A stretch of DNA of 64,000 nucleotides from Acidobacteriota bacterium (lineage in GTDB: Bacteria > Acidobacteriota > UBA890 > WLXD01): the NCBI GenBank assembly GCA_965205505.1, contig CBDBHB010000009.1, positions 32,001-96,000 of the forward strand. The letters run 5' to 3'. The notes beneath the pieces are model-generated. The model made no database searches. It was not told the DNA's origin and saw nothing but the letters and a program-made list of their open reading frames with translations. Below, in pieces: positions 11,455 to 41,984 of the stretch. The position numbers were made by a program, and so were the translations under genes. Numbering within the stretch: position 1 is the first letter of the stretch; every line of letters begins with the position of its first letter.

Positions 11455-11504
11455 TGACCTGCCCCCCTTTTCTGGTCCACTGGAAGTGAGAGTCTCGGAC
11501 CGAA
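11455..11504. mobile_element. 50-bp terminal stub of another IS3-family element
   Basis: Begins TGACCTGCCCCCCTTTTCTGGTCCA and is directly followed by the IS3-B IRR. Confidence 0.7.
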
Positions 11505-11530
11505 TGACCCCACCCCGAAATCAGTACCAG

Positions 11531-12385
11531 TCAGAGGTTTAGGATTCGGTGTTCCGAAGCCTCCGGTTGCCAGCCCCTGGCGAACTCCGTAGGAGTTCGA
11601 TCGTTCAGTGAGCTGTGTGGTCTGTGGGTATTGTAATCAAGCCTCCAAGCCTCCAGTTTTCGGCGCGCGTCATCGATCGAGAAGAACAGGTTGGCGTTGA
11701 GGCATTCGTCGCGAAGCCGTCCGTTGAAACTCTCGATGAACGCATTCTCCACGGGCTTTCCCGGCCGAATGAACTCCAACTGCACGCCTCTTCGGTACGC
11801 CCAGGAGTCCATCGCCTGGGAGTAGAATTCTGAGCCATTGTCGACGGTGATGACCCGTGGCAACGGCCCGGCAAACGACAGCCGCTCGAGTGCTCCAGCC
11901 ACCGCCTTGCCGGTCATCGACACGCCCGGCTCAAGTAACGGACATTCACGGCTAAACTGATCGACCACCGTCAGCACCCGAAACGGCCGGCCACTCTCGA
12001 GCCGATCGGTCACGAAGTCCATGCTCCAGCGCTCGTTGGGCCGCTCTGCGGGCGGCAGCACAAGCCGTATGTGACTCGCCCGCTTGCGCCGTCGCTTTTT
12101 GGTCCGTACCTCCAGCCCCTCCTCTCGATAGATCCGATACACGCGCTTCTGGTTCACTACCCATCCCTCGCGGCGTAGCAACACGCACAACCTCCGATAC
12201 CCGAACCGCGGACGCGCCGCGGCGAGCTCGCCAAGACGACGCCGCAGCACGGGGTCGTCCGTCCTTGTGCTCTGATACCGATGGCTGGTGCGCGACAACT
12301 CGATCAGCCGACACGCTCGACGCTCACTGACACGGAACCCGTCCTGCAGGTACCGCACCACCTCGCGCTTGCGCGCCGGCTTCAC
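11531..12385 (-). CDS. IS3-B OrfB DDE transposase
   Basis: [29 protein letters not shown]. Confidence 0.93.
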
Positions 12386-12648
12386 ACCTTTTTTGACAGC
12401 ACCTCCTGGAGCATGTGCTTGTCCAAGCTCAGATCTGCCACCAGCTGCTTCAACTTCCGGTTCTCATGGCGGAGTTGTCGTAGCTCCCGAAGTTCGGCCA
12501 CGCCCATCCCGGCGAACTTGCGGCGCCACGTGTAGAACGTCTGCTCGCTGACGCCCAGCTTGCGACACACCTCCTTGATCGGCGTGCCCGCCTCAGCCTG
12601 CCGCAGCGCGTAGGCGATCTGCTCGTCCGTGTACCTCTTCCGCTTCAT
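12382..12648 (-). CDS. IS3-B OrfA
   Basis: [14 protein letters not shown] plus leucine zipper. Confidence 0.93.
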
Positions 12649-12798
12649 CTGTCCTCCTGCTTGGAGGACGACGGTACACCGATTTCCTAAACATCAACCT
12701 GGCACCGTTTTCGGGGTTTGGGTCACACTCGCTGCGGTCAGTTACGTCCGTTAATAAGTCGGACATAACCCTAGTGACTCGGTTGTACAATCTCTTCC

Positions 12799-15700
12799 AT
12801 GGTCGACCATCGTCCATTCACCCGCACGGTGCTCACCGTCGCCGGCATTGACCAAGAGACACGGTCCCCCGGTGATGCCGTTCGGGTAGGCGGACGCAAC
12901 AGATCTACAGCCGAATCTGCCGGCGTGAGGACAGCATCGTGTCGGAGCATGTCCAGAAACGATGCCTGTCTCTCTGGACCCCACAGTAAGCGTCGAGTTG
13001 CCCTCGCCGTCACGCTGTCAGTGCTGCTGTCGGGCATCGTGGCGGCGCGGGTCCACGCCCAGTCCGCATGGGACGGGACGGTGGAGGTGTCCCCGAGCAC
13101 GTTGACCGTCAAGGAAGGAGAATCCGTCAGCTACCGCGTGAGACTGACCAAGCCGCCGACAGGGGACGCCGACAGCAATGTGTGGTGGATCATGGTGCAG
13201 GCTGATGGCGCGAGGCGCGCCGACGGCATCTACAAGAGTATCCATTGGGTGCCGTCGATCGGCCGAGAGTTCAATCCGGACAGCCGGTCGGGTTGCGCAG
13301 GGTGCTGGGACCAGTGGCAGGACATCCGTATATATGCGGATCAGGATGACGATGCAGAGGATCTGTGGGTAACCTTCACCCACGAAGTGTGGGATCACAA
13401 CGCTGACTGCCCGGTGCATGGGGTGGGCGAGGTGACGGTACACGTCATCGATGACGACGGCGGAGGCACAACGGATGACAACCCGGCAGTCACGGTGTCC
13501 TACCGTCCGACGACCTACACGATGGTCGAGGGCGAGACGGTACCGGTAACGGTGGTCCTGAGCGCGGACCCGGAGCGCGAAGTGGTCATCCCGATTGCGG
13601 TTGAGCCCGGTGGCACCGCGACGACCGCAGACTATTCAGGGGTGCCCACGAGCGTGACCTTCGCATCCGGTGAGACGACCAAGGCCTTCACCGTCATGAC
13701 CACCGAGGACACCGCGGATGAGCCCAACGAGACCGTCAACCTGGGTTTCGGCTCGCTGCCCACTGGCGTGAGCGAGGGAAGCTCCCCGGATGCGGTCGTC
13801 ACCATCATCGACGACGACGGCGGAGGCGACGGGGAACGACGGCGGCGGCGGAGGCGACGGGAACGACGGCGGCGGCGGAGGCGACGGGAACGACGGCGGC
13901 GGCGGAGGCGACGGGAACGACGGCGGCGGAGGCGACGGGAACGACGACGGCGGCGGCGGCGACGGGAACGACGACACCGAGGACGGCGGGGCGAACCGGC
14001 CGCCGGTATTCGCCCGGAGCTATGCGTTCGACCTGCTGGAGCACCGGTCCGGGCGCGAGGTGCCGGTGTTCCTCGGAACGGTCCGGGCGCGAGACCCGGA
14101 CGGTGACCGGATTCGCTACGCCCTGTCCGCGGGCGACCGCGAGCGCTTCACCGTCTCTACGGCGAGCGGCGCGGTGAGCTACGTCGGCGGGGGCGAGGAG
14201 TTCGAGTCGGGTCCGTCGCGCTACGAGTTGCAGGTGACGGCGGAGGATGGGGCTCTCCGTGCGAGGGCCGATGTGGTCGTCCGGGTGGTGGACGTGCCGG
14301 AGGCGCCGGATGCCGGCGACGACGACGCGGAGACGCCGGAAGACACGCCGACGGTAATCGACGTGCTGTCGAACGACCGCGACCCGGACGGCGACCGGCT
14401 GCGGATTGCCTCCGTGGGCGCCGCGGAGCACGGCACGGCGACGCTGGCGTCGGGCGGGATTCGGTATGCGCCGGACCTGAACTGGCATGGCACGGATCGG
14501 TTCGACTACACGGTGGCCGACGCGGGCGGGCTGACGTCGACGGGTACGGTGACGGTGCGGGTGACGCCGGTGAACGACCCGCCCGAGGCGGTCGACGACG
14601 AGGCGGAGACGCTCGAGGACGTGCCGGCGGTGGTGGACGTGCTGGCCAACGACACCGACGTCGACGGGGACCGGTTGCGGGTGGTGGCGGTGGGCTCGGC
14701 GGGGCACGGCGCCACGGCGATAGCGTCCCGCAGGGTGCGCTACTCACCGGATCCGAACTGGTATGGGACGGACCGCTTCCGGTACACGATTGCGGACCCG
14801 GAGGGGTTGACGGCGACGGCGATGGTGACGGTGACCGTGCTGCCGGTCAACGACCCGCCGGAGGCCGTGGGGGTCATCCCGGACCAAGCGCTCGAGGAGG
14901 GCGGGGCGCCGGGGACGGTGGACCTGGCGCCGTACTTCACCGACGTCGACGGGGACGCGCTGACCTACGCCGCGGTGTCGTCGGACGAGACGGCGGTGAC
15001 GGTGACGGTTGCCGGCGCGACGGTGACGCTGTCGGCGGTGGTGACGGGCACGGCGACGGTAACGGTAACGGCCAGCGACGTCGAGGGGCTGACGGCGACG
15101 CAGACCTTCAGCGTGCAGGTGGGCGACCGGTTGGTGCGAGCGGTGATGACCGACGCGCTGGCGGCGCTGGGCCGGGGGCACCTGTCGAGTGCGCGGTCGA
15201 CGATCGGCCGGCACCTGGAGATGGGCGGCGGCGCGGCGACGCGGTTGATGGTCGGAGGCCAGCTCCTTTCGCCGGACGCCTGGGACCGGATCGGCGCGGG
15301 GGGACTGGAGCATACCCACGAGTTGCTGGTCCGGGCAGCGCAGTGGCGGCAGCGCGTTTCGGGAATGGACCTGGTCGGGACGTCGGCGGAGCCGCGGCTG
15401 GGGCGCTCGGGGTCGGCGGGGCTGCTGGGCGGCGAGTCCGGCGGGGACTGGAACCGGCTGCTGCAGGGGACGGACGTGCTTCTGTCGTTCGGGGGGCAGG
15501 ACGGTCCGCCGGGACCGGCGGGCGAGCGTGTCGGCGGGCCGCGGTGGACGGTGTGGGGGCAGGGTGACCTGCAGACGTTCCGAGGTGCGGACACCGAGGG
15601 CGACAGTTATGAGGGCGACCTGCGGACCGGGTATCTGGGGCTGGATGCCCGGCTGGGCGAGAAGTGGCTGGTGGGTGCGGCGTTGGCGCGCAGCGGCGGC

Positions 15701-16765
15701 CGCGGCGACTGGCAGGTGGGCTCGTCGAGCGGCCGCCTGACGACCGGGCTGACGGTGGTGCATCCGTACCTGCGGTGGGGTGACCGGGACACGTCGGTGT
15801 GGGCGTTGGCGGGCATCGGGTGGGGGACGGCGGAGAACGTGCGGACGCTGACCGGCCGGCGGGAGACGAGCCCGTTGCGCCTGGGCCTGGGCCTGGTGGA
15901 GGGTCGCCGTCGCGTAGCGACGACAGGCCGGTGGCTGGCGGTGGATCTGCGGGGGGAGGCGTCGTGGGCGCGGCTGCGGACCGGCGACGGGGAGGAGACG
16001 GTCGACGGGCTGGCGGCGGAGGTGCGGCGGGTGCGGACCGGCGTCGAGGTGACGCTGGCGCTGGACGGCCCGGGCGGTCTGGAGGTGGCGCCGTTCGGCG
16101 CGGTGAGCACGCGGCACGACAGTGGTGCGGGCCAGACCGGCGTGGGGCTGGAACTGGCGGGCGGTGTGCGGCTGACGGGCGGCCGCGTGCGCATCGAGGC
16201 GCACGGCCGGACCCTGGCGCTGCACACGGCGACAGACTACGAGGAGAAGGGAGTGAGCGTGACGGCGAGCGTCGGCGCCGGGCAGTACGAGCCGGGGTTG
16301 AGCGTGTCGCTACGCCCCCGGTGGGGAGCCCCGGGCTACGGAGCCGAGGCGCTGTGGCAGGACCAGCTGCAGAGCTACACGTACGGGTACGGGGCGGAGC
16401 GAGACGACGTCGCGGTCGACGCGCGGGTCAGCTACGGCCTGCGCCTGCCCGGTGGGCGGCTGCTCACGTCGTTCGGAGGCTACGGGGAGATGGGCACGCG
16501 GCGGCGCATGCAGGTGGGTGCGAACCTGGGCACGCTGGGCCTCTTCGGCGGCGACCTCGACAGCCCGCTCCAGTTCGAGTTCGTGGGCGAGCGCCATGTC
16601 CGGCCGCGAGGCGGAGCGGACCACCGCCTCACGCTGTTCGGAATCGTCAACCTGGGCGCGCGATCCAGCGCGTGCCGGGGCGGCACCTGCGCGTCGGCGA
16701 CAGCTCACCGACAGGGTCGGCGTGCGCCGCGGGCGTGGCGCCAGGCCGGGCACGAGCCCCGCTGA
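12799..16765 (+). pseudogene. Calx-beta / cadherin / tandem Ig-like autotransporter-type surface protein split by a 1-nt frameshift at about 13831
   Basis: Signal peptide ...AARVHAQS, Calx-beta-like DYSGVPTSVTF..TIIDDD, cadherin ARDPDGD, NDxDxDGD / PVNDPP repeats, C-terminal beta-barrel-like region. ORFs 12799..14106 and 13790..16765 join if one G is removed. Confidence 0.8.
13819..13975 (+). repeat. Tandem 24-27 bp repeat encoding GGGGGDGND-like linker units
   Basis: About 6 units of (GGC)2-3 GGAGGCGACGGGAACGAC, the first and last imperfect. Confidence 0.9.
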
Positions 16766-16854
16766 CGCAGCGATCAACCGCTCTGCCTCGGTATCGGATC
16801 TATCGGGAGGAGGGACTAGAGGTACGGACCGCCGGCACAGCGGCCCAACGAGCG

Positions 16855-17237
16855 TGACCCAAACCCCGAAAACGGTGCCAGGTTGATGTTTAGGAAATCG
16901 GTGTACCGTCGTCCTCCAAGCAGGAGGACAGATGAAGCGGAAGAGGTACACGGACGAGCAGATCGCCTACGCGCTCCGGCAGGCGGAGGCAGGCACGCCG
17001 ATCAAGCAGGTGTGCCGCAAGCTCGGCGTCAGCGAGCAGACGTTGTACACGTGGCGCCGTAAGTTCGCCGGGATGGGCGTGGCGGAGCTGCGGGAGCTCC
17101 GACAGCTCCGGCATGAGAACCGGAAGTTGAAGCGGTTGGTCGCAGACCTGAGCTTGGACAAGCGCATGCTCCAGGAGGTGGTGTCAAAAAAGGTGTAAAG
17201 CCGGCGCGCAAACACGAGGTCGTCCGGTACCTGCAGG
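16855..17237 (+). mobile_element. Truncated, diverged IS3-B-like copy (IRL plus orfA 16932..17198)
   Basis: Identical IRL and an orfA with substitutions. orfB is lost after about 40 bp. Small orfB fragments lie at about 16790-16854. Confidence 0.88.
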
Positions 17238-17356
17238 GCGCCCTGGGCTCCGGGCGGGCTCGCTGACGTATGCAGTGCCTGCAGACGAGAGCGATCCGTC
17301 AGACTGCAACCTCATTGTTTGGCGGCCTCGATTGTTTGGCGGCAGTTGCGATTGGC

Positions 17357-17662
17357 TCAGATCTCCGGCTCCTCACCGCGGCGCGCGTGCCACAACGCCA
17401 AGATCTCGACCGTATTGCCGGTCTGTCCCAGGATGTAGTACAGGTGATAGTGGACACGACCGAGTAGTAACCGTCGCAACCCGCGCAACGACGAGTGTTG
17501 CACTGGTTCGCCCGCCGAAGGAAGGCGCCAGATCGTCTCGAAGCCTCGCTCGATCTCTTCGGCGAAGGCATCCGGCGCTTTGTCTCGATTGTGTATCCAC
17601 CAGTTGGCGGCGGCGCGAATCTGCGCGGCGGCACGCGGCGCTACGACAAGTCGCCGACTCAA
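17357..17662 (-). CDS. RelE/ParE-family toxin
   Basis: LVVAPRAAAQI, P.AG, LRRLLL...YHLYY, VEILALWHARR. Confidence 0.85.
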   Translation of the reverse strand: MSRRLVVAPRAAAQIRAAANWWIHNRDKAPDAFAEEIERGFETIWRLPSAGEPVQHSSLRGLRRLLLGRVHYHLYYILGQTGNTVEILALWHARRGEEPEI

Positions 17663-17886
17663 TCCGCGATGAGGGCTTTCAGCTCTGCGACAAGATCGTC
17701 TCCGTCGACGGAATCGCCCCCGTGGATCTCATCGGCCGCCACCGACAACTCAGCTTCTTGCTCAGCCGTTAGGCGGATTGGCTCATCCGCATCCCTGGCA
17801 AGAATCGTCACGCTCTCGCCTTCCGCAAGGACTCCGTCCGGAACCTGGATCTTGCCGTCTACAACGGTACTGGTAATGACCTTCAT
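17659..17886 (-). CDS. Putative antitoxin
   Basis: 75-aa acidic ORF upstream of the toxin, overlapping it by 4 nt. Confidence 0.7.
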   Translation of the reverse strand: MKVITSTVVDGKIQVPDGVLAEGESVTILARDADEPIRLTAEQEAELSVAADEIHGGDSVDGDDLVAELKALIAD

Positions 17887-17894
17887 GGTTCTGC

Positions 17895-17903
17895 ATTCTA
17901 CCA
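17895..17903 (-). promoter_or_regulatory. Extended -10 promoter (TGnTAGAAT), near-leaderless TA transcript
   Basis: TGGTAGAAT lies 8 nt before the antitoxin ATG and there is no SD. Confidence 0.45.
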
Positions 17904-17973
17904 GCCGAGTAGCGGCCCCGCCTGGCCGCCCAACGGTTCACGGGCTCAGCCGGGGGCGCGTCCGGCGCAGCAG

Positions 17974-18259
17974 GGCTCGCCGTGGGAAAACGGCTACGTG
18001 GAGAGCTTCAACGGCAAGCTACGAGACGAGCTGCTGAATGGGGAGATCTTCTACACGCTCACTGAGGCGCAGAGCTTGGTGCAACGATGGCGCCGCGAAT
18101 ACAACCAGGTGCGGCCTCATAGCTCGTTGGGTTATCGGCCACCCGCACCGGAAGCGACGTTGTTGGAGCCGGCTACGCTCCGCTCCGCCGGCTCCAACAA
18201 CCTCTTGTCAGCACCGATTCCATGAGTTACGAAGTGGCCCAAACACTTGGGGCAAGTCA
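17974..18259 (+). mobile_element. 3' fragment of IS3-A-like element
   Basis: orfB C-terminus plus IRR TTGGGGCAAGTCA. Confidence 0.9.
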
Positions 18260-18888
18260 TGATCGCACGATGGCAGCCGAATACTAGTTTGGGGGGGGCA
18301 GATTCAGAGGTCGCTGTGGGAGTGAGGCGCAGAACGGTCCGTGACGTGATCATGTACGAGTACTCGAAGCTGATCGCCGATGCAGCTGTCGGTGGTCGAT
18401 CATCGCTCGCGCCGGTAACGCGCACGGGCGACGAATACTGGTCGTTCGTCACAGCCACCTTCGGCAAGCTGGCGAGAAAGGACATTCAGCCATCGACGGT
18501 GCTGCGAGAGAACAAGCTACTTGTGGTGGAAGAAAATGGCTGCGCGTACTGCGGGACCGAGAGTGATTCCCTGCAGTGGGAGCACATCATCCCGCGCGAC
18601 AAGGGAGGACCCGACACAATCGACAACCTCGTAATGGCCTGCTCAAGCTGCAACGCGACGAAGGGAGCACGAGATCCGTTCGAGTGGTATGCGGGCCGAC
18701 GTGCCGAGATCCCGCGCATAGTCCTCGGCAAGCTACTCAAGCAACTACTCGCGGCTCATACGGCGGCAGGGACACTCGCGTGGACCGAGTATCCGATGGG
18801 TCAGGGTCTCAAGGCGGCTCAGCTTGTCCGCGTGTTCACGAAACCGGGCTCTTCTGCGACGGGAGGGTGCGAGGAATCGCCAAGATGA
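18260..18888 (+). CDS. HNH endonuclease (start uncertain, abuts IS end)
   Basis: CAYCG...WEHIIP..GG...NLVMACSSCNATKG. Confidence 0.8.
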
Positions 18889-19142
18889 ACATGGATCCGT
18901 GGCGGACCAATCCCGCCGCCCAACAGGCCCCTGCACCCGACGGTAAAGCTGTTCGCTCTTTTCGGAGAATCCCCCGTGGGAGGCGGGCGCCGATACCGCC
19001 GAACTCAGTGTTGTTTGGGCCGCCGGGTGGGCAGGTCACTGGCGCAGACAAAACGGTCCTACTTCGACGGATCCCTAAAGCGACTCAATGCGATTACGCC
19101 ACCAGCGAGGACCCCGTGGGCACTGCAAAAGCTGCAGCCGGA

Positions 19143-19710: not shown

Positions 19711-20236
19711 GAGTCCGACTGTAACCGGACATCTCTCACCCCCGGGGACCCGGCCGGCCCGTGGGGGTGGGGGTCGAGGGGATAGTGGCCGGTGATCCCT
19801 CGACGAGGGTCCGTCTGGGAAGGCGGAGGTGAACGCCGACCCGGGGCCTTGCGTCCGGGTGCAGCGACTCATAGGCCACTGCTATTGAGTGGCCGGCGGC
19901 GACCAGGCCGACGAAGGGGTCGGAACCTTTGGCGAAGTCGGCGACAAGTCCATGATCGGCGATGGCAGCATGAGCCATCTTAGGAGGCGCGGGTGGCTCG
20001 CGCGTTGCAGCGCGGGGGATTTCGGCCGACGAAACCCCCCATCTTAGGGTGCTCGCGCCCCACTTTGGGGACTCGATCGGCCGTGCACCCGAACGCGTTT
20101 CAGCGGGGGGAGTCCGACTGCAACCTGGATACTTGCACGAGCACGGCGGCGCAGCCCCGGCAGGGCGGATCATTGAGGCAGCAGAGCGTGACGGGATCGC
20201 GCGCCGCACGCTTCAACGCTCCCGCAACCGCGCTCG

Positions 20237-20346
20237 GGGGTCCGGTTCAGGCCTCCCGCTGCGGAAACGTGGACACCGAATCGCACGCCGCTTCGGTCGC
20301 TCATGCTTCAACCGCCCGAGCTGCTCCCGCAGCTCGGTGAGCCAGT
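20237..20346 (-). repeat. Duplicated 5' end and upstream region of nfo
   Basis: Near-identical to 56077..56186. Confidence 0.9.
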
Positions 20347-20404
20347 GAGGCGTCAGTCAACTTCGCGTCGGCCGAAGGCACGGCAACCGACCACCGAGCC
20401 CCCC

Positions 20405-20646
20405 GATCGTATTTCCCTGTTCCGGCGCACGGATTTCCCTGTTCGGCCGCAGAAATTCCCTGTTCGCCGCCAGAAAATTCCCTGTTCCGTTGCGTAGGGA
20501 ATTCGGTCCCTAAGCCCCATAATATCAGTGGGTTAAGAGACCTCGATCGGGCCGATTTGGGGCTAAATCGATAAAATTCCCTGTTTTTCCCTGTCTAACA
20601 GGGAAATCGGGCAGAGACGGGTTCGCTCCAGACTGCGCCCACCAGC
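20405..20646. repeat. Phased TTCCCTGTT repeat module ending in a tRNA-3'-like motif (probable integrative-element end)
   Basis: Direct copies at 20413, 20435, 20456 and 20478, an inverted copy near 20496, further copies at 20577-20606, then GAGACGGGTTCGCTCCAGACTGCGCCCACCA. Confidence 0.75.
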
Positions 20647-25205: not shown

Positions 25206-26018
25206 CCTTGGCTGGGCCGTGCACCCGGTTCTCGTCCGGCGCGAACAGAATTGGCGTGGCGCGCCCGAACTCCCGGTAAACAGTGGCCTCGGCGGACGTT
25301 AGCTGATGAACAGCGCGCGTACCAAGCAGGTAAGCCTCGCTGGCTCTTGGCTCCCAGGCCTGCTCGCAGACTACGCCCAGGTTGAGGGAATGCTGGATCT
25401 CAGCTATGGAACGGAGGGGTTCAACGCGACAGGCAAGGTCAGCCTGAATGGAGCTATCGTGGATGGTCAGGTGATCTGCCAAGGGCGGGTCGGCCGCGAT
25501 GCCGACGTGAGCGAGCGCGACTTGGTTCGCGGTGCGAACCCGGTACCAAGTGGGAGAGTTGCGGAGCCCAGCCGAGTCGCGTTTGCCGCGGATGGCCTAC
25601 GAGCGCGAGGAGGCGTTCACGTGGGTGGCGAGAAGGGCGTGGTTTTCGACGGGCAACTACGCTTCATTGGTTGCCGGAGCGATCAATTCCACATCTCCAA
25701 CGCAAGATTCGTTCACGAGAATGGTACAGCCATATTGGCGCAGCAGGCCTGGATCGAGGGCTCCTTGGTTCTCGACCGCGTCACAACGAAGGGGCCTGTG
25801 TTGCTGGACTCGTGCAATGTTAGGGACAGACCTTATCGTCAAGGGCTGCCGATTCCGCAGGAACGCAAGCTGTGAGAACCACCTGGTCAGCATTTCATTA
25901 GGTCTGTTCGGGACCTCGGTAAGTGGGGAGATCAGCGTTAGCGGCTCAGTCTTCGACGGACAGGTCTCGCTTGTCGGCAGCCGGGTTGGCAGAGCAGTTC
26001 GCCTCGACGATGTCGAAG
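25206..26018. pseudogene. Rearranged partial duplicate of the 1840..3765 gene
   Basis: 25206-25306 is an inverted copy of about 1850-1964. 25307-26018 is a direct copy of about 2165-2875 with a 1-nt insertion near 25821. Confidence 0.9.
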
Positions 26019-31835: not shown

Positions 31836-32048
31836 GCCGTCGAGCCGGCGGAATGGGTCATGCACGCGACGAAGACGATCGCCACATCCGACGCCGTGCC
31901 CACGCCGACGCCGCGGGAGTGTAACCGACCGCTCTGGTGCTCGATGCCGACAACGCAGGGTAATGTTCAACGGCCAGCTTGTTCGGCGCCGTGACGATGA
32001 GTCAGATCGGTAACCACCCGAGTGGGCCCTGCTGCCCGCCGGTTCCGA

Positions 32049-32229
32049 GCGTATCCGGGGCTTCGGCCCCGGCCTCATTGAAGCGGCAACACGAAGGCGC
32101 TCATGTTCCGCAGCAAGCCCGGCGTATCCGGGGCTTCGGCCCCAGCCTCATTGAGGCCTAATCGCCGCTGCTGACGCGGTCGGCATCATCCGGGCGTATC
32201 CGGGGCTTCGGCCCCGGCCTCATTGAAGC
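32049..32229. CRISPR. Orphan CRISPR mini-array, 3 x 36-bp repeats and 2 spacers (type I-G/I-U-like repeat)
   Basis: GCGTATCCGGGGCTTCGGCCCCGGCCTCATTGAAGC at 32049, 32122 (2 mismatches) and 32194. Spacers are 37 and 36 bp. The repeat has an internal hairpin and an ATTGAAGC end. Confidence 0.85.
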
Positions 32230-32269
32230 TCCTCAACGATGGATCGTGGTGTGCGCCTGAACGGGCGCG

Positions 32270-32386: not shown

Positions 32387-32525
32387 TGACCTGCCCCAAC
32401 TGTTTGGGCCACTTCGTAACTCATAGAATTGGTGCTGGCAAGAGGTTGTTGGAGCCGACGGAGCGGAGCGTAGCCGGCTGCAACAACATCGCCTCGGGTG
32501 CAGGCGGCCGATACCTCAACGAGCT
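32387..32525 (-). mobile_element. IS3-A-like right-end fragment
   Basis: IRR TGACCTGCCCCAA plus the end of orfB. Confidence 0.85.
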
Positions 32526-32576
32526 TGACCTGCTCCCCGAAAACTGATCCGACGCGAGTGTGAGTTCTCCAGGCTA
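32526..32576. mobile_element. 51-bp terminal stub of another IS3-family element
   Basis: TGACCTGCTCCCCGAAAACTGATCCG..., followed by the IS3-B IRR. Confidence 0.7.
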
Positions 32577-33797
32577 TGACCCCACCCCGAAATCAGTACC
32601 AGTCAGAGGTTTAGGATTCGGTGTTCCGAAGCCTCCGGTTGCCAGCCCCTGGCGAACTCCGTAGGAGTTCGATCGTTCAGTGAGCTGTGTGGTCTGTGGG
32701 TATTGTAATCAAGCCTCCAAGCCTCCAGTTTTCGGCGCGCGTCATCGATCGAGAAGAACAGGTTGGCGTTGAGGCATTCGTCGCGAAGCCGTCCGTTGAA
32801 ACTCTCGATGAACGCATTCTCCACGGGCTTTCCCGGCCGAATGAACTCCAACTGCACGCCTCTTCGGTACGCCCAGGAGTCCATCGCCTGGGAGTAGAAT
32901 TCTGAGCCATTGTCGACGGTGATGACCCGTGGCAACGGCCCGGCAAACGACAGCCGCTCGAGTGCTCCAGCCACCGCCTTGCCGGTCATCGACACGCCCG
33001 GCTCAAGTAACGGACATTCACGGCTAAACTGATCGACCACCGTCAGCACCCGAAACGGCCGGCCACTCTCGAGCCGATCGGTCACGAAGTCCATGCTCCA
33101 GCGCTCGTTGGGCCGCTCTGCGGGCGGCAGCACAAGCCGTATGTGACTCGCCCGCTTGCGCCGTCGCTTCTTGGTCCGTACCTCCAGCCCCTCCTCTCGA
33201 TAGATCCGATACACGCGCTTCTGGTTCACTACCCATCCCTCGCGGCGTAGCAACACGCACAACCTCCGATACCCGAACCGCGGACGCGCCGCGGCGAGCT
33301 CGCCAAGACGACGCCGCAGCACGGGGTCGTCCGTCCTTGTGCTCTGATACCGATGGCTGGTGCGCGACAACTCGATCAGCCGACACGCTCGACGCTCACT
33401 GACACGGAACCCGTCCTGCAGGTACCGCACCACCTCGCGCTTGCGCGCCGGCTTTACACCTTTTTTGACAGCACCTCCTGGAGCATGTGCTTGTCCAAGC
33501 TCAGATCTGCCACCAGCTGCTTCAACTTCCGGTTCTCATGGCGGAGTTGTCGTAGCTCCCGAAGTTCGGCCACGCCCATCCCGGCGAACTTGCGGCGCCA
33601 CGTGTACAACGTCTGCTCGCTGACGCCCAGCTTGCGACACACCTCCTTGATCGGCGTGCCCGCCTCAGCCTGCCGCAGCGCGTAGGCGATCTGCTCGTCC
33701 GTGTACCTCTTCCGCTTCATCTGTCCTCCTGCTTGGAGGACGACGGTACACCGATTTCCTAAACATCAACCTGGCACCGTTTTCGGGGTTTGGGTCA
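32577..33797 (-). mobile_element. IS3-B copy 2 (orfA 33454..33720, orfB 32603..~33450)
   Basis: 1221 bp with both IRs and intact ORFs. Confidence 0.95.
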
Positions 33798-34287
33798 GCT
33801 CTCAGGAAGGCTCGGGAAGGGGGACAAATGGCCCGGAAGCGATACACGGTAGAGCAGATCATCGCCAAGCTCAGGGAGGCAGAGATCGAGCTGGCGCAAG
33901 GAGCCAAGACGCCACAGGCGTGCCGGAAGCTGGGCATCAGCGAGAACACGTACTACCGGTGGCGTAAGGAATACGGCAGGCTGAGGGTGGATCAGGCACG
34001 GCGACTCAAGGAGCTGGAGCGCGAGAACGGGCGGCTCAAGAAGCTGCTGGCGGAGACGATGCTCGACAACGCCATCCTCAAAGAGGTGTCGTCGGGAAAC
34101 TTCTGAGCCCGGCTGGCGCCGCAAATACAACCAGGTGCGGCCCCATAGCTCGTTGGGCTATCGACCGGCTGCACCCGAAGCGACGTTGTTGCAGCCGGGC
34201 TACGCTCCGCTTCGCCAGCTCCAACAACCTCTTGCCAGTACCGATTCTATGAGTTACGAAGTGGCCCAAACACTTGGGGCAGGTCAA
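33798..34287 (+). mobile_element. Internally deleted IS3-A with intact orfA (33828..34106)
   Basis: Starts at IS3-A position 48. Most of orfB is deleted at about 34111 and the IRR is present. Confidence 0.88.
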
Positions 34288-34464
34288 GCAGTGACGATGG
34301 GTTTGTTGCCGGCAGTTACGACTTACTTCGCACTGTGGCGCCTTACCTCAGTTAGTCAGCTTGTTGTCCTTGTCGCGACACTCATCGTGCCTGTCATCGG
34401 CTTTGTATCGTGGTGGGCGGCGTACAGGGGCGCGCATTCCGGAAGATGACGTTTCTTCGAGATG

Positions 34465-34658
34465 GCGTGCCTGCGAGCAAGCCGGCTTGTCCAGACAAGC
34501 TGGTTCACGACCTCAGGCGTTCGGCGGTCCGGAACTTGGTCGCGCCGGGGTGCCCGGACACACGGCCATGCAGAATCACCGGGCACAAGGACAGCGGCGT
34601 CTTCGACCGATACGACATCGTCAACGAGGAGGACATAGCGCTCGGCCTATCGCGATGA
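34465..34658 (+). pseudogene. Tyrosine recombinase C-terminal fragment
   Basis: HDLRRSAVRNL...ITGHK...VFDRY. Confidence 0.8.
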
Positions 34659-34748
34659 TTAGGCCCGAACGCGCCCCGGGGGAACGTCGGCGCTCCGGGC
34701 GGGTCGTCCGGCAGAGGGCTCCATGGCCCGGGGCGCATCGACGGTTTC

Positions 34749-36002
34749 CTAGTCCGCGCCGTCAGAATGGGCGCCGAGCATCCGTTGGGAAATCGCGCGA
34801 TCGACAAGACTGCGAATGATACCAGCCATGTTCCGTAGCTCGATCTGCTGGCTGAACCTGACGGGACCCATTTCGAGAAACAGCTTGCCAAGCACTTCGT
34901 CTGCGAAACTGCTGGACACGATGGGTACGTGTTCGAAGTCCACAACGATGCGGCTCCCTGGGTGCATGGTCATCAGGTTTTGCAGCTTTGTTCGCAACGG
35001 TCGTCCCGCCACGCGGCTCGAGAAAGAACTAGCTTGATCTTTGATTCGGACGAGCAAGTGAGAGCCGTCGGCCGACTCGAACCGTTCCATGTAGTCGACT
35101 GGGCGGTGTCGTTGGCCGTCGAACTCCAGCGCCTGCGCTAGGAGTTTTGGATTGGAGCAGTCCATGGCTGCGACGACAAGCGTACCGTTCACAGGGATCT
35201 GTTCGTTGCCGACGTGCAGTTCGCTCTTGCGCCAGTCGAGCCTTCCGTGTCGTGAATGGACGTGCAAGTAGCCATCCCCCACCCGGACCACCTGGAAAGT
35301 ACCGAATAGCCCATTTCCCTGGCCTATCGCGGGATCTCGGGTGACGCCTTCTCGAATCGCGCGATCCAGAGCGTCGGGATCTGAGGTGATCTCGGCGTGT
35401 CCTGCTCTGAGCGTCTTCGGAATGCTGACGCCGCCGTCTGCCACTACGAACTCGACCTGGCGGCTTTTGCGGTTCGTGGTTAGTTGCACGAAGCCACCCG
35501 CCTTGGCCTCGGCATGGGTTAGCACATTGTCCGTGATTTCGCCGAGCGCCCATTCGATGGCCGCCAGGTCCTCCCGTTCGAGCCCAGGCACGAAGGACAG
35601 CACCGCGTCGATCATTCGGTGAACCGAACTCTGTTGGTCGGCTGCAGACTTGAAGCTGATCGCTGGTACGAATGAGAGGCCCCTGAACTTCGACTCTGGG
35701 TGACTACCGGGATCGGCCAGGTAGGCCCAGTTCGCATTTATGAAGCGATTCCGTAGTACGCTCCGACTAGGCAGGAAGAGGGTGGCCTCCAGGCCGTCGT
35801 ACCGCCGCGTTGCGACGTCCGCGATGACGGCCAACATAGGTCCTGCAAAGGTGAACGTGCACTGCTCGAAGTCCAGGACGATGTCTGGGTAGCCACGTTT
35901 TACCGCGAGGTTATGGATGGTGGCTAGAGCGCGATGGAAATCGAACATTCCGAAACGACCCGAGATCTGGATCCGGTTGCCGTCGGTTCTGATCGTGCTC
36001 AT
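34749..36002 (-). CDS. STAS-like / HATPase_c / DUF4325 domain protein
   Basis: EITDNVLTHA, VADGGVSI, GQGNGL, and C-terminal VDFEHV..VSSSFADEVLGKL. Confidence 0.8.
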   Translation of the reverse strand: MSTIRTDGNRIQISGRFGMFDFHRALATIHNLAVKRGYPDIVLDFEQCTFTFAGPMLAVIADVATRRYDGLEATLFLPSRSVLRNRFINANWAYLADPGSHPESKFRGLSFVPAISFKSAADQQSSVHRMIDAVLSFVPGLEREDLAAIEWALGEITDNVLTHAEAKAGGFVQLTTNRKSRQVEFVVADGGVSIPKTLRAGHAEITSDPDALDRAIREGVTRDPAIGQGNGLFGTFQVVRVGDGYLHVHSRHGRLDWRKSELHVGNEQIPVNGTLVVAAMDCSNPKLLAQALEFDGQRHRPVDYMERFESADGSHLLVRIKDQASSFSSRVAGRPLRTKLQNLMTMHPGSRIVVDFEHVPIVSSSFADEVLGKLFLEMGPVRFSQQIELRNMAGIIRSLVDRAISQRMLGAHSDGAD

Positions 36003-36134
36003 GCTGAAGTGTCCACACGCAGGGCGCTCCCCGGTACCTTCGGTCCAGCAGTACCGGCCGCGTCGGCGTGAGCTTCTGACCGGCGGCCCCTCGAGACTCG
36101 TGCGCGTGTACTGACTCTAAGGAAGCCGCGTAAG

Positions 36135-36217
36135 TACTGGAGGTGGGACTCGAACCCACACGGACTTGCGTCCACGGGAGTTTGAATCCCGCGCGTCGCT
36201 AATTTCGCCATTCCGGC
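36135..36217 (-). tRNA. tRNA-Leu(CAA), degenerate / probable pseudo-tRNA
   Basis: Anticodon arm CGGGA-TTCAAAC-TCCCG, long variable arm, T arm GTGGG-TTCGAGT-CCCAC. Two acceptor-stem mismatches, no GG in the D-loop, no encoded CCA. Confidence 0.75.
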
Positions 36218-36600
36218 TCAGTCCTCATTTTACCTGCGGACGTTACAGGCCGGTTTCCGCCCCTCACCAGACCCTCTGGAGCTCCTTATTCCAGAAAAAA
36301 GGACGTTACTACGGATACTAGAAGTTACTTTGAAATCTTCGTTTTCGCGGTCCTAAGCCCTGCCGTTCCAGTCACGTATCCGTTTGTTTTTCCCTGCAGA
36401 AGTCCGCCTTCAAAATCCAGTGGGCTTACGCCCATGGATTCGAATCCCTCCCGCCGTTTTTTTCGCTGGTCGGCGCGCTCGAGGTGCTGCGCGAGGCTGG
36501 TGAGCGGAGCGCCGAAGGGCCATTGACAGCGATCAACAACTAACGATGGAATGTCGGCGGATAGGGTCTCCGACTCCCAGGTCACTTCTATGAGAAGGCC

Positions 36601-36846
36601 TAGTTCGGTCAAGGGCAATGTGGTGCCCAGCGAAGAATCGATCTGCACGCCATGCTCCTATTCGCACTCTGGTGGACGAGGATTCAGGTCGTCCGGTGCA
36701 TTCTGGGGTCCGTCCCGATTCGAGGCGCTGCAATCTAGCTGCCGAGCTCGAAGCTCGTAGTGACCTTCGCAGTCGCCCGGACCGGGCGGTCAGATCGATA
36801 ACCGTTGGGTCGCGTCGCCCTACCGACCTCCTGGTTGCGGGTTAGT
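36601..36846 (-). ncRNA. Candidate bridge/seek RNA
   Basis: About 250-nt non-coding segment between the transposase stop and the IRR, the position known for IS1111-type guide RNAs. Structure not computed. Confidence 0.55.
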
Positions 36847-37893
36847 TCATGCTGCTGAAACCTCTACAGGTGCGCGCAACGGTTCGTACTCGTCTCCACT
36901 CAGCCACAGTCGGTGCAGCACAACGGCGAGCTTACGGGCGACAGCAACTGCTGCCTTTTTGTTGCCATGAGGACCACCGCGTCCGGCCAGCTTGAGCCCC
37001 CAGCGTCTGAGCTCAGTATCGGGCCCGAAGGGGCCCAGGATGTAATGCGCCGAGCCCACCAACAGGCGTCGGAGCATTTTGTCGCCCGCCTTGGTTATTC
37101 GTAGCGCAGGGTCCTTGTCCCCCGACTGCCGTTTCTTCGGTCTCAGTCCCAGGTACGGGCCCACGGCTCTGGAGGTATTGAACCGTTCCGGCTCCTCGAG
37201 CGTCAGCACATACGCCAGTGCGGTCAGAGCTCCGACCCCGGCCACTTGCTGGAGCTGCTGTGTCTCCGGGTATCGCCCCTGGCACAGCTGCACGATCTGA
37301 CGCTCGTATTGCTGGATGTTGCCCGTCAGCATGGCGATCGTTTCAAGCACCGGCTCGAGCGCTCCCTTGAGCCGCTCCGGTATGTGCTCTGGCGCGGTGC
37401 GCGCGAACGCCGGCGTCGAGCACCTGGGAATACGACAACCGGCCGACTTGACCGCACCACGCACATGGCTCACTAACTGCGTGCGGCTCTTTACCAGAGC
37501 ATCTCGGCTCCGAATCACGGCTAGATCCGCTCGCGCTTGTCTGCCTCGATGCTGCACCGTCTTAAGCAGCTTTGGGTCCATTCTGCCCACTCGTGCCAGG
37601 TGCTCGGCATCCAACCGGTCGGTCTTGTCGTGCTCGCCATAGATCAGCTTCAGCCGCCTCGGGTTAGCCACCAGCACCTCATGACCCAGTTGCTTCAACT
37701 GCTCACTCATCCACGGCGAGTGCGTTCCAACCTCCAGCACTACTCGAGCGGGCTCCTCGCACCCGAACCGCCTCGCCAGCCCCTCCGGGCTCGTCCTCAC
37801 CCGCCCTTCCTCCATCACCCTGCCCTTACTGTCGAGCACGCACATACGGCTGTACCGGTCGCTTACGTCCAGTCCAATCGTTACACTTGTCAT
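36847..37893 (-). CDS. IS110-family DEDD recombinase/transposase
   Basis: IGLDVS, VVLE, KTDRLDA, GVG.LTA, YLGL.P...QSG, VAVARKLA. Confidence 0.95.
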   Translation of the reverse strand: MTSVTIGLDVSDRYSRMCVLDSKGRVMEEGRVRTSPEGLARRFGCEEPARVVLEVGTHSPWMSEQLKQLGHEVLVANPRRLKLIYGEHDKTDRLDAEHLARVGRMDPKLLKTVQHRGRQARADLAVIRSRDALVKSRTQLVSHVRGAVKSAGCRIPRCSTPAFARTAPEHIPERLKGALEPVLETIAMLTGNIQQYERQIVQLCQGRYPETQQLQQVAGVGALTALAYVLTLEEPERFNTSRAVGPYLGLRPKKRQSGDKDPALRITKAGDKMLRRLLVGSAHYILGPFGPDTELRRWGLKLAGRGGPHGNKKAAVAVARKLAVVLHRLWLSGDEYEPLRAPVEVSAA

Positions 37894-39850
37894 CGGCCAA
37901 CCTCCTTGGGCTTCGAGCCCCGTTAACGTTGCATAAACGTTTGCAGAGCCGTCAGGCTACTGCGTTTAGGAGGTTAGCCTTCTCATCTCATCTAGACGTC
38001 TTGGGAGGCTCCACGCCCACCAGCACAAGGCAGCCGAAGGCCGGGCCCGCCCGGGAGCGCCCAGGATAGCTTCTAACGCACGCCGATTTCGGCGTGAGCC
38101 CCAAAGTTGCCCATCAGCCCCGCCGCGCGCGGCAGGCGCGAGCCTCGAGAAACACCCACACGCGATGCCCGTCGATGACGCCCCACCGTGGCCAAATTGG
38201 AGCTCGATGCTGCTGCCGCCGGCTCGTATTCCGTGTCGTCGCTGTGCCGACAAGCGCTCGGAGGGGTTCCAGCGAAAGGGCGTCGAGCTTGCGCGCGTGA
38301 CGTTGCGCTCGAGGCCGAGCACTTGAGCGCGTCGACCGGATATGCTGCGCCCTGGCACCAAGCGGAGTGTTCTTTGGCGGGTGGTAGAGGCGGCTCACTG
38401 CAAGGCCACGGGAGGTTTGTGAGATGATCGATCCGTGTCGCTCACCGGCACCTACGCCGGCACATCGAGCTTGAGCAACCGCGGCCTCGCGCTCGAGCAG
38501 TCGGATCACGCAGTCCAGGGCCTGCGCATCCTCGAACGTTCGGTGCCACCAGGCCGTCGGCAGCGTCTGGATCCGCTGGCGCTGGAGCTCGCGGTGCAAC
38601 ACGGTCGCGGGACAGCGCTTCGCAGCCTCACCTTGTGGAGTGTGGAGCGGACATCAGCGACCGCCACGGGAACGCGAGACGCTGCTGGCCCTGCTTGGGG
38701 CTGGAGCTCGCCGGGGCCGCGATCGCCTACCGCGACAACCCGACGGACGAAACCCTCGAAGCCGTGTGGAAGGTGGTGGCATTTCCAACGTCAGCGACCG
38801 CACGCGACGCATTCTCCGAGGCTGCGGTGGCCCTTGCCGACGACCACCGAAACGAGGCGCGCGCTGAAGCGTTGCGCACCGTCGCGGCCGCGTGGCGGCC
38901 GTTACCTTCGCTGCGACCGCATAAGGAGGAGGGAGCAATGGGAGAGAAGATCTTGTTGAAGCGGTGCTGTACCGCACGGACTCGTCGCAGTACGTGCTGG
39001 AGCTACGCGAGTCGACGAATGCTCTGCCGTTGACCACCGAGGAGCGATACACCCACACGGCATTCGTTGCTACGACGCAGAACGAACTAGTTGACCATCT
39101 ATAAGGACACCGGAGGCGGCAAGTTGAAGCAATCGGCGTTCGACCTACTGATCGCCGCCAATATCGACACCTTCGAGACGATCGAGTAGAGAGGGAAGAT
39201 GGTGGACGTCCACTGAAGCTTGCGGGCGGCGCTACTAGCGGTCGCGCTGCTCGGTGCGTTGCCGCGAGAGATCCGGCAGCTGATCGTGCACGACCTTAGT
39301 TCCTGGTAATCGACGAGAACGGCACCCCGCGGGCTGTCATGGACGCCGATGAGGGGATCGCCTACTTCGACGAGAACACGCAGGGGCCCATGATGAGCGC
39401 CACGGGGATCGCCTATTACGACGAGGACGGCGCCGTGATCTGGCGAGCGCCGCAGCGGTAGGGGCTACGAATGAGCGATGACAGCGGAGGCGCAGATCGA
39501 GCGCAGCTGCTGCGGCTGTGGGAGGTGCGGGAACGTCAACACGAGGCGCTCGGGCAGCTCGGCCGCGGCGACGATGTGCGATACGGCCCCGGAATCAAAG
39601 TACCTCTGCCGTGGAGTTGGAAGGGGAAGATCCGGCAAGCAAGCGGACATCCGGGGGCTCGAAGCAGATGAATTGGCTGCGCGCCGCGATAGGCTGCGCG
39701 TTGCACGCCGACGAGCTGGCCAAGGTCGAAGCGGAGCTGGCACAGGTCGAGGCGCAGCTGAAGGAAAGCTACAAGCAGCTCCGGTCCGAGAACGGTGGGT
39801 GAGCATCGAGCACCGCGGCTGCTTCGACCTAAACGCTGAGGAGGGACGAA

Positions 39851-40639
39851 ATGCCGGATCGCTATCTCGGATTCGAATGGGAAGCAGAGGGCATTCGGCG
39901 TGCGCTTGCAACGGCTGCGAAGGCGGCGCGTGGTCATGCCGTGTGGCTGTTGGTCCCGAGTCTCTCGCAGTTGCGAGGAAGCACGCTGCGGGAGGCACTC
40001 GGAGACCGCGTCGCGGACGCGCTGGCGAAGAACCAGCCGGTGCGGGTACGCGAATTCGATGTCGTACTCAGGCGGATTCTGATGAGTAGTGGTCGCTCGA
40101 AACGGAAGATGATGATGCGGTTCGAAACTAGCCCCGACGATGCGATCTTGGTTGTGTACGCGACGCAAGAAATGTTTGACGTGCTCGACGATCTAAGAGT
40201 CGCCGCTGTAATGGCTGTGGCTGCGGGCGGCTGGGAAGAGGATGCTCTCCAGTGGGCGGGAACTTGGCAGCCGCACATGTTGGACGACGAAATCGCTACC
40301 GTTCCCGGTGTCGAACTCGACCCGGTCGTTGTTGAGGGCCTCAAAAGGATTACATCCGCGAACAATCTAGAGCACCGGTCGATCCATGCTGGGCCCTACG
40401 AGAGGGCTACGGCCCAATTGCTCAAGGAGCTGCACCAGGCCGGATACCCGCTTCCCCCGAACGACATACGTGCGTGGGCCCAGCGTAACGGATGGAACCC
40501 GAGCCTAGCGGGAGACCTCGAGGCGATGGCTCGGAAGATCGCTGATGGCCGCAGGGTGAGGGGAACGGGAGGGAGGCGTGCATGGCAGCGAGGGATAGTC
40601 GCTTACCTTGAGCGTAAGGCCGCCGACAAGGATCACTAA
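39851..40639 (+). CDS. Hypothetical protein with DUF1889-like C-terminal domain
   Basis: Good RBS. C-terminal ..LLKEL..GYP....IRAWA.RNGW.P....L..MARKI.DG.R resembles DUF1889/YoaC (from memory). Confidence 0.6.
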   Translation: MPDRYLGFEWEAEGIRRALATAAKAARGHAVWLLVPSLSQLRGSTLREALGDRVADALAKNQPVRVREFDVVLRRILMSSGRSKRKMMMRFETSPDDAILVVYATQEMFDVLDDLRVAAVMAVAAGGWEEDALQWAGTWQPHMLDDEIATVPGVELDPVVVEGLKRITSANNLEHRSIHAGPYERATAQLLKELHQAGYPLPPNDIRAWAQRNGWNPSLAGDLEAMARKIADGRRVRGTGGRRAWQRGIVAYLERKAADKDH

Positions 40640-40713
40640 TGACTATCCCACTCTGATCGACGAGAGCGGGGCGTTGCACCACCGCTACCCCACTTCCTGT
40701 CCCTTTCTCAACG

Positions 40714-41934
40714 TGACCCAAACCCCGAAAACGGTGCCAGGTTGATGTTTAGGAAATCGGTGTACCGTCGTCCTCCAAGCAGGAGGACAGATGAAGCGGA
40801 AGAGGTACACGGACGAGCAGATCGCCTACGCGCTGCGGCAGGCTGAGGCGGGCACGCCGATCAAGGAGGTGTGTCGCAAGCTGGGCGTCAGCGAGCAGAC
40901 GTTGTACACGTGGCGCCGCAAGTTCGCCGGGATGGGCGTGGCCGAACTTCGGGAGCTACGACAACTCCGCCATGAGAACCGGAAGTTGAAGCAGCTGGTG
41001 GCAGATCTGAGCTTGGACAAGCACATGCTCCAGGAGGTGCTGTCAAAAAAGGTGTGAAGCCGGCGCGCAAGCGCGAGGTGGTGCGGTACCTGCAGGACGG
41101 GTTCCGTGTCAGTGAGCGTCGAGCGTGTCGGCTGATCGAGTTGTCGCGCACCAGCCATCGGTATCAGAGCACAAGGACGGACGACCCCGTGCTGCGGCGT
41201 CGTCTTGGCGAGCTCGCCGCGGCGCGTCCGCGGTTCGGGTATCGGAGGTTGTGCGTGTTGCTACGCCGCGAGGGATGGGTAGTGAACCAGAAGCGCGTGT
41301 ATCGGATCTATCGAGAGGAGGGGCTGGAGGTACGGACCAAAAAGCGACGGCGCAAGCGGGCGAGTCACATACGGCTTGTGCTGCCGCCCGCAGAGCGGCC
41401 CAACGAGCGCTGGAGCATGGACTTCGTGACCGATCGGCTCGAGAGTGGCCGGCCGTTTCGGGTGCTGACGGTGGTCGATCAGTTTAGCCGTGAATGTCCG
41501 TTACTTGAGCCGGGCGTGTCGATGACCGGCAAGGCGGTGGCTGGAGCACTCGAGCGGCTGTCGTTTGCCGGGCCGTTGCCACGGGTCATCACCGTCGACA
41601 ATGGCTCAGAATTCTACTCCCAGGCGATGGACTCCTGGGCGTACCGGAGAGGCGTGCAGTTGGAGTTCATTCGGCCGGGAAAGCCCGTGGAGAATGCGTT
41701 CATCGAGAGTTTCAACGGACGGCTTCGCGACGAATGCCTCAACGCCAACCTGTTCTTCTCGATCGATGACGCGCGCCGAAAACTGGAGGCTTGGAGGCTT
41801 GATTACAATACCCACAGACCACACAGCTCACTGAACGATCGAACTCCTACGGAGTTCGCCAGGGGCTGGCAACCGGAGGCTTCGGAACACCGAATCCTAA
41901 ACCTCTGACTGGTACTGATTTCGGGGTGGGGTCA
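40714..41934 (+). mobile_element. IS3-B copy 3 (orfA 40791..41057, orfB 41054..41908)
   Basis: 1221 bp with both IRs and intact ORFs. Confidence 0.95.
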
Positions 41935-41984
41935 AGCACCGAGTTACTGAGATAAGACGTGGTACTAACCGTGGGGTCAGGTCA
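41935..41984. mobile_element. 50-bp terminal stub of another IS3-family element
   Basis: Reverse strand reads TGACCTGACCCCACGGTTAGTACCA... and abuts the IS3-B IRR. Confidence 0.7.

Follow-up and report, generated by a model that had tools for sequence, protein, structure and literature searches.

An IS3-family insertion sequence lies at a fixed distance inside the ends of foreign IS3-family elements and spreads as a hybrid with a captured end

The insertion sequence (IS) ISB, also called IS3-B, occurs in three full copies in a 64,000-nt window (the whole stretch of DNA analysed here, positions 32001-96000 of contig C9) of the 5.98-Mb, 9-contig assembly of an Acidobacteriota bacterium, referred to as genome G000. 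Each copy adjoins a 50-51-nt stub of a foreign IS end, and the same arrangement, with a spacing of 50-52 nt, was found at every full copy in the genome. This fixed spacing is confirmed as real and far beyond chance, and is general for the ISB lineage. The explanation favoured here, which I regard as probable, is that ISB targets the ends of foreign IS3-family elements at a fixed site via their inverted repeat (IR). In addition, ISB joined to a captured 50-nt foreign end moves as a unit of its own.

The three window copies are 99-100% alike, and each adjoins, at its right inverted repeat (IRR) with the tip TGACCCCACCCC, a stub that starts with TGACCTG (Table 1). Beyond the tip region the stubs are unrelated in sequence, and their inner ends read CGAA, GCTA and TGCT for copies 1, 2 and 3, respectively. 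A CC(A/G) motif ends at stub position 25, 26 and 25 in the same order, with the junction 25 nt further on in every case. On the opposite side of copy 2, the left inverted repeat (IRL) ends at 33797, and in the adjoining flank 33798 corresponds to 9846, position 48 of an intact IS3-A. The initial annotation of the window had described all of these features, and its coordinates, stub lengths (50, 51 and 50 nt), inner ends, motif distances and the abutment on IS3-A were reproduced.

A BLAST search of the genome gave 17 full ISB copies, 16 of them at ≥98.4% identity and one at 94.4%, plus fragments. Inspecting the flanks of every copy had been put forward in the initial annotation as a check, and a 50-52-nt stub with a TGACCTG-type tip was present on the IRR side in 17/17 full copies and on the IRL side in 0/17. 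Among exact IRR tips in the genome, 17/18 carried a stub (50 nt ×10, 51 nt ×5, 52 nt ×2), and the single stubless tip belongs to a 5'-truncated copy. A motif scan of the genome for IS-type tips, which returned 319 of them, gave the same picture: same-strand pairs within 400 bp were spaced by 50 bp (×12), 51 bp (×5) or 52 bp (×3), while the other spacings in this range numbered six, each occurring once. The inner tip of these tandem pairs was an ISB-type right end in 19/20 and the left end of IS-X, described below, in 1/20, and the orientation relative to the tip was constant in 20/20. The same scan showed no abutted tips, no triple tandem tips, and no opposite-strand tip pairs closer than 77 bp. 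Other parts of IS bodies, and stubless positions in ordinary DNA, contained none of the 17 full copies in this genome.

The stubs are the ends of at least five other IS types, and a further check named in the annotation, the search for uninterrupted parents, succeeded for stubs a, b, c and d. Stub a corresponds to the terminal 50 nt on the right side of IS-X (~1267 bp; 18 full copies, ≥98.9% identity), and is identical in 50/50 positions to 18 uninterrupted IS-X right ends that continue with GACAAGGGG. Stub d derives from the left end of IS-D, a relative of IS-X (84%) with uninterrupted copies at C7:423640 and C5:77722, while uninterrupted relatives of stubs b and c were found at C9:2192730 and C9:3141956, the latter running on into the start of orfA. 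In four copies ISB still lies within its parent element (Table 1), and in all four the parent sequence resumes at the left side of ISB after an intact 4-bp duplication at positions 47-50 or 48-51, which is where the annotation had predicted the duplication. Left ends of targets (IS-D, IS-c, IS3-A) and right ends (IS-X, IS-b) were hit at the same distance, with the right end of ISB always towards the target tip, and the duplicated tetramers vary from target to target, as do their neighbours (TGCT, GCTG, ACCA, CGAA, GCTA, GCTC, TCGA). Uninterrupted parents, in-place insertions and the low identity between the transposases given below bear out the earlier proposal of a fixed position and orientation inside heterologous ends.

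The reverse order of events, in which other ISs landed beside ISB and were then trimmed to ~50 bp, had been raised in the annotation itself. It would account for the bare adjacency only, and the continuation of the parent on the IRL side after a 4-bp duplication excludes both this order and stubs that are native to ISB. The exact stub lengths of 50-52 nt and the existence of uninterrupted parents also speak against the reverse order, to which I give next to no credence.

Table 1. Positions of ISB copies, stubs and related elements in the window (window coordinates) and of ISB copies still inside their parent elements (contig coordinates).
Feature	Position	Strand	Basis or target	Duplication
ISB copy 1	11505-12725	-	sequence comparison within window and genome	
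Stub b, 50 nt, tip at 11455, end of IS-b	11455-11504	+	in-place insertion with duplication CGAA at C9:3006213	
ISB copy 2, recombinant with flanks from two different target elements	32577-33797	-	flank comparison	
Stub c, 51 nt, tip at 32526, left end of IS-c	32526-32576	+	related uninterrupted end C9:3141906-3141956 running into orfA start	
IS3-A-like element from its position 48, with internal deletion; inner part of a target hit at 48-51 (GCTC)	33798-34286	+	same junction in G007	
Right-end fragment of IS3-A-like element, tip at 32387, cut off by IS-c end	32387-32525	-	sequence comparison	
ISB copy 3	40714-41934	+	IRL tip TGACCCAAACCCC, IRR tip TGACCCCACCCC	
Stub a, 50 nt, tip at 41984, last 50 nt of IS-X right end; with copy 3 a 1271-bp hybrid	41935-41984	-	50/50 identity to IS-X ends	
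Intact IS3-A, uninterrupted reference for target type	9799-11069	+	sequence comparison	
Second IS3-A copy	56373-57643	-	sequence comparison	
5' fragment of ISB relative, element positions 1-383, 94% identity	16855-17237	+	sequence comparison	
In-place ISB	C8:1204093		IS-X right end	GCTG, positions 48-51
In-place ISB, 94% variant	C8:940319		IS-X right end	TGCT, positions 47-50
In-place ISB	C9:2224176		IS-D left end	ACCA, positions 48-51
In-place ISB	C9:3006213		IS-b end	CGAA, positions 47-50

ISB is an active IS3-family insertion sequence of 1221 bp that, by analysis of the open reading frames (ORFs) in the window, consists of an 88-aa orfA and a 284-aa orfB frame (40791-41057 and 41054-41908 in copy 3), with an AAAAAAG (A6G) slippery motif in their overlap (element position 332, ~41045-41051 in copy 3). 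Its OrfB matched the NCBIfam model NF033516 (IS3 family transposase) with 241.3 bits against a cut-off of 160, and its OrfA matched the N-terminal part of the same model. The ends form an imperfect inverted repeat of ~50 bp with the tip TGACCCAAACCCC on the left and TGACCCCACCCC on the right, so that both begin with TGACCC. A DDE transposase, overlapping frames with a -1 slippery motif, TG...CA termini and 4-bp duplications are thus all present, as expected for the IS3 family. Within this family, the IS407 group is defined by its transposases, 4-bp duplications and TGACCTGCCCC-type tips, and ISB may or may not belong to it: its duplications are of 4 bp, and its own tips read TGACCC while those of its targets read TGACCTG. 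The best plasmid matches of ISB are below 60% identity and are named just 'IS3 family transposase', with no subgroup name. ISB OrfB shares only 41-45% identity with its counterparts in IS-X, IS-D and IS3-A, a group whose members share 71-85% with one another, while over the first 27 nt of its left IR, ISB is identical to IS-D at 22 positions and to IS-X at 21 (~80%).

The annotation had missed three points, namely that stub a is the end of the 18-copy IS-X, that a mobile 1271-bp hybrid exists, and that copy 2 is a recombinant. Judging by its flanks, copy 2 combines two separate events, with the IRR side derived from a hit in the left end of IS-c and the IRL side from a hit in the left end of an IS3-A-like element; the parent of the IS-c stub would continue with GATTAGGG, and the duplication expected on the IS3-A side is GCTC. 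An inversion between window copies 1 and 3, or flanks matching across copies, was considered as the cause of the missing duplications of these two copies and rejected, as merely 3-5-nt matches (e.g. AGC, GAGCC) were found and were taken as chance.

Stub a was found together with ISB outside any IS-X element, at unrelated places, in 11/17 full copies, which makes this the commonest form (12/17 when the 94% variant at C8:940319, still inside its IS-X copy, is counted). Perfect 4-bp duplications surround ISB plus stub a in three copies (TTCC, TTGG and ATCC), and a 3-bp match (ACA) surrounds one. For the TTCC copy (C9:1262566), the flanks are contiguous in a genome of the same genus (G004:C15) with a single TTCC, that is, an empty site, and contigs of the public runs X15 and X17 (Logan) join position 287 of this locus to position 1563, skipping exactly the 1271-bp unit plus 4 ambiguous letters. 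Because of these duplications and empty sites, ISB and the 50-nt right end of IS-X are seen to move as one unit, with the foreign tip serving as the right end. The actual mobile unit is consequently 1271 bp long and has two tandem right IRs, and annotation based on repeats would place its border 50 bp short.

In this genome the 1221-bp form is seen only inside IS ends, and the 1271-bp hybrid is confined to ordinary DNA. Most stubs mark transposition of the hybrid rather than fresh IS-into-IS hits. IS-X itself is located in ordinary DNA, and 4-bp duplications were found at 7/19 full IS-X or IS-D copies. The IS-X transposase, whose two IRs have similar or identical counterparts in the hybrid, is a candidate for moving it, and this would explain why hybrids are found in ordinary DNA and the 1221-bp form in IS ends.

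The abundance of the hybrid bears on two other explanations. ISB might natively be a 1271-bp element that ends in stub a, with the inner 'IRR' as an internal repeat and the other stubs acquired by recombination or end replacement. Its predominance and movement as a unit fit this notion, as do a-like stubs joined to relatives in genomes G002, G005 and G014. Yet a good IRL/IRR pair of ~50 bp already bounds the 1221-bp body, stub a is identical throughout to the right end of a different element, and copies of IS-X, IS-D and IS-b enclose that body with parental 4-bp duplications, which only an insertion of 1221 bp explains; a native 1271-bp element is therefore very improbable. Alternatively, insertion might be random and the pattern a matter of survivorship: a copy would do no harm only within another IS, and it would acquire a usable outer end, and so multiply, only where it had landed ~50 bp from an end. 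Neutrality is to be expected of insertions into ISs, and part of the stub-a count clearly comes from amplification of the hybrid. On the other hand, the four in-place insertions are primary events and not amplified hybrids, and all of them lie at 47-51; neutral retention would scatter hits over ~1.2 kb and in both orientations, and the remainder of the IS bodies and stubless ordinary DNA contain 0/17 full copies in this genome. Survivorship of this kind is, like the native hybrid, considered very unlikely.

Relatives of ISB with 76-99% identity and the same geometry were found in seven genomes (G002, G004, G005, G007, G012, G014 and G021) of a comparison set of 26 genomes of the order. A search of this set for TGACCTG followed after a gap by TGACCCCACCCC, with spacings of 32-62 bp allowed, gave 23 matches in five genomes, 23/23 of which were at 50-52 bp, whereas spacings of 8-31 and 63-93 bp and reversed-pattern controls gave 0 matches among the 26 genomes. 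The stubs of these relatives are IS-X-type left ends, IS-X-type right ends, IS3-A-type left ends and one IS3-A-type right end. When 20 distinct IS-like junction types from eight genomes were pooled, the distance to the tip was 50 (9 types), 51 (7) or 52 (4), and the distance from the CC(A/G) motif was 25 (14) or 26 (6); one further regular-expression match at 54 bp is unlike an IS end. The IS3-A-type event seen on the left side of window copy 2 is also preserved in another genus (loci L023 and L008), where one ISB relative has a stub ending with GCTC, and a second, inverted copy 2-3 kb away holds the remainder, starting with GCTC. Outside the order, a weak scan found no real case among the genome-contig matches listed, which there were spread evenly over 35-65 bp and were unlike IS ends, and a similarly weak scan of metagenome contigs with a 30-nt IRR pattern gave one match, a stubless 32-nt fragment.

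Under the favoured explanation, the ISB machinery would select the ends of a different IS3-family clade with TGACCTG tips (including IS-X, IS-D, IS3-A, IS-b and IS-c). Integration is ordinary and two-ended, with a 4-bp duplication, and falls 50-52 bp inside the target tip. The site is the inner edge of the long IR, 25-26 bp past a conserved subterminal GG..CC(A/G) motif, and the IRR of ISB always faces the target tip, which places two IRs in tandem. The ISB transposase or OrfA may bind the foreign IR, or dock on resident transposase bound there, so that the transposition complex would read the foreign IR and integrate at its inner edge; a protein tether of this kind is plausible and fits known properties of the family. 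The insertion splits the target from its end, and ISB gains a second, outer right end.

The most constant measure is the distance from the subterminal GG..CC(A/G) motif, with a play of one base that is shown by the 50/51 pair in IS-X and by a stub with an extra G (26). As the insertion site lies about as far inward from this motif as the tip lies outward, the geometry suggests the IS3-family ruler read in mirror image. More tentatively, and with less than even confidence, ISB might be seen as a parasite of other ISs, which would use such a mirror-image ruler (~25 bp inward of the subterminal binding site, in place of an attack ~25 bp outward at the tip) to disable its victim and capture the end, and would then be spread by the victim's abundant transposase. 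End capture followed by hitch-hiking would likewise yield a 1221-bp form restricted to IS ends and a 1271-bp hybrid restricted to ordinary DNA.

Several observations weigh against the favoured explanation. The tip is not the reference point, because IS3-A-type ends with a run of seven C (7-C) are hit at 52 instead of 51, at the same local sequence, and the stub at C4:13340, which has an extra G between motif and site and hence a distance of 26, is better explained by the local sequence than by a strict ruler. Since the target ends are homologous to each other, the site could be defined without any ruler, by a local feature such as ATC.GG.T at ~40-47 or a purine-rich run just inside. Duplications of either kind are missing at 9/17 full copies in G000, from which it follows that many ISB flanks have been reshuffled. 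In other genomes, many stub-bearing copies are short fragments, some of them may descend from shared hybrids and not from independent hits, and stubless full copies of ISB relatives exist (loci L002, L021 and L008), so the preference is not absolute.

The first of these points lend themselves to a rival in which a local target sequence or DNA structure lies ~50 bp inside all ends of the clade, at the inner IR boundary near the ribosome-binding run of orfA or the 3' hairpin, while the IR itself goes unrecognised. The homology of the ends, the loosely conserved ATC.GG.T before the site and A(A/C)AGGGG-like runs after it agree with this, as do the 7-C variants of IS3-A ends, in which the site moves with the local sequence, and the extra-G stub, which keeps GCTC at the junction. 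However, a simple target consensus is unlikely because the duplicated tetramers and neighbours differ between targets; the distance is shared by left and right ends, whose inner neighbours are unrelated, the orientation relative to the tip never varied among the tandem pairs, and hybrids, in which the transposase gene is identical, insert into ordinary DNA that lacks this context. Recognition of local sequence alone is rated improbable but, given the homology of the target ends, stays a live rival, and targeting via the foreign IR is retained as the preferred explanation.

The IR-targeting behaviour of IS911 is reportedly the subject of papers by Loot in 2002 and by Rousseau in 2007 and 2008. 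As outlined in one source, IS30 and the IS3-family element IS911 target their own IRs beside the outer tip and form an abutted IR-IR (IRL-IRR) junction via one-ended strand transfer (PMC9333248). ISB resembles them as outlined there, as a copy-out/paste-in element that uses an IR in the target as a landmark and has a strong orientation bias (PMC9333248). It differs in that the targeted IR belongs to a different element and in that the site lies 50-52 bp inside the tip, with tandem IRs and a normal 4-bp duplication, and the abutted IR-IR arrangement beside the own outer tip, the hallmark of IS911 and IS30, was absent from this genome. For the figure-of-eight reaction of IS911 and IS2, the position of attack is described as set by the distance from a subterminal transposase-binding site and not by the intervening sequence (PMC7780238), so ruler-like measuring from a subterminal site is, on this account, established for the IS3 family. 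The ISB junction, at 25-26 nt from the subterminal CC(A/G) in 20/20 junction types, is comparable, but the IS911/IS2 ruler as portrayed there points outward, a few bp beyond the element's own tip in a donor reaction, while the ISB site is on the inner side and is a matter of target choice, in an element other than its own.

ISs specialised in the ends of other transposons (IS4321 and IS5075) are said to have been reported by Partridge and Hall in 2003. These elements hit transposon ends at one position and are presented as RNA-guided DEDD elements (PMC11187229). ISB is like them in its specialisation on the ends of other elements, with one position and one orientation, and unlike end hunters of the IS1111/IS110 type, for which the account at hand gives a DEDD transposase and base-pairing of a seekRNA with one target sequence, it has a DDE IS3-type transposase and the sequence at its target site is not conserved. 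In composite or hybrid elements that involve a neighbouring IS end, a foreign end and an own end likewise make a longer unit move, but the foreign end of ISB is a 50-bp stub gained by its own targeted insertion, giving a fixed 1271-bp unit with two tandem right IRs. The 'IR-replacing' transposition of IS1272 was considered as a parallel and set aside, as it is described, in the portion of the source at hand, with hairpin targets, no duplications and another family (PMC5678879).

Among the full texts searched, a scope without subscription papers, ISfinder and supplements, none described insertion by an IS3-family element ~50 bp inside foreign IRs or the tandem-IR hybrids, so that an earlier description elsewhere is possible. 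I take the ISB geometry to be a new variant of IR-targeted transposition, with the spread of a hybrid by its captured end as an added finding. ISB offers a natural case with many independent events, intact duplications, empty sites and several comparable target types, and its steering to a single position inside foreign IRs provides a testable handle on how a bound IR positions the transpososome. It also represents direct competition between insertion sequences, in which a hit cuts the victim's end from its genes, and end capture creates a new mobile unit in one step. The system is of clear interest for transposition research and of moderate general interest.

Some further arrangements of IS ends were noted in the genome. 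At C9:2214054-2214104, the left end of an IS-X copy lies 50 nt within a right end of the IS-D type, and by this one locus the target clade can occasionally insert likewise, with the other end leading. No ISB copy was found in the end of another ISB copy in the whole genome, despite ~34 ISB ends with shared subterminal motifs, which in these small numbers hints at self-avoidance or target immunity. A miniature derivative of 326 bp, made up of the first 310 nt and a short right tip of a relative of ISB, lies at C4:12963-13340 behind a 52-nt IS3-A-type left-end stub. The locus at C9:2262058, where the stub shares just its first 29 nt with IS-X and adjoins a remnant of an ISB-like IRR (32 nt) that is joined to coding sequence of IS3-A, was counted neither for nor against a ruler, as it is too scrambled. 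The idea that IS-X is itself a hybrid, raised by TGACAAGGGG 48 nt inside its right end, was rejected, as its right end can be aligned over its full length, conserved hairpin included, with the right end of IS3-A.

Two kinds of irregularity were seen at junctions. The 94% ISB variant in the right end of IS-X (C8:940250-941547) has a mosaic right IR, in which patches are replaced in register by the IS-X sequence found just past the duplication across the insert (AAGGGGTTGTTGAG, GCGAAG); the pattern resembles patchy gene conversion, with the two stretches led by TGCT(T)GAC as partners. In 4/6 of the junction types with a motif distance of 26, an extra T or G is located exactly at the junction. 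An extra T between stub and ISB tip occurs in G000 at C4:76967 and C9:2197912 and at L031 and L032 (G002 and G005), with examples such as ACCA+T, GCTA+T and TGCT+T. The same base precedes the inner tip in stub-a hybrids, and the extra T could have been carried over from the flank of a stub-a donor, as may happen when the cut in a hybrid donor is one base off.

The window contains further repeats. An ORF of 991 aa at 13790-16765, between ISB copy 1 and the ISB-like fragment, contains 9-nt tandem repeats (~13812-14003) and three ~49-nt repeats ~280 nt apart, and probably encodes a repeat-rich surface protein. Just upstream of the IS nest at 32387, three ~54-nt direct repeats with a spacing of 72-73 nt occupy 32044-32242, each with the GC-rich hairpin CCGGGGCTTCGGCCCCGG. 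More repeated segments with 92-98% identity lie at 1850-2875 and 25231-26018 and at 20229-20590 and 56068-56372, and from its sequence the window appears as a dense patchwork of IS remnants beyond the elements studied here.

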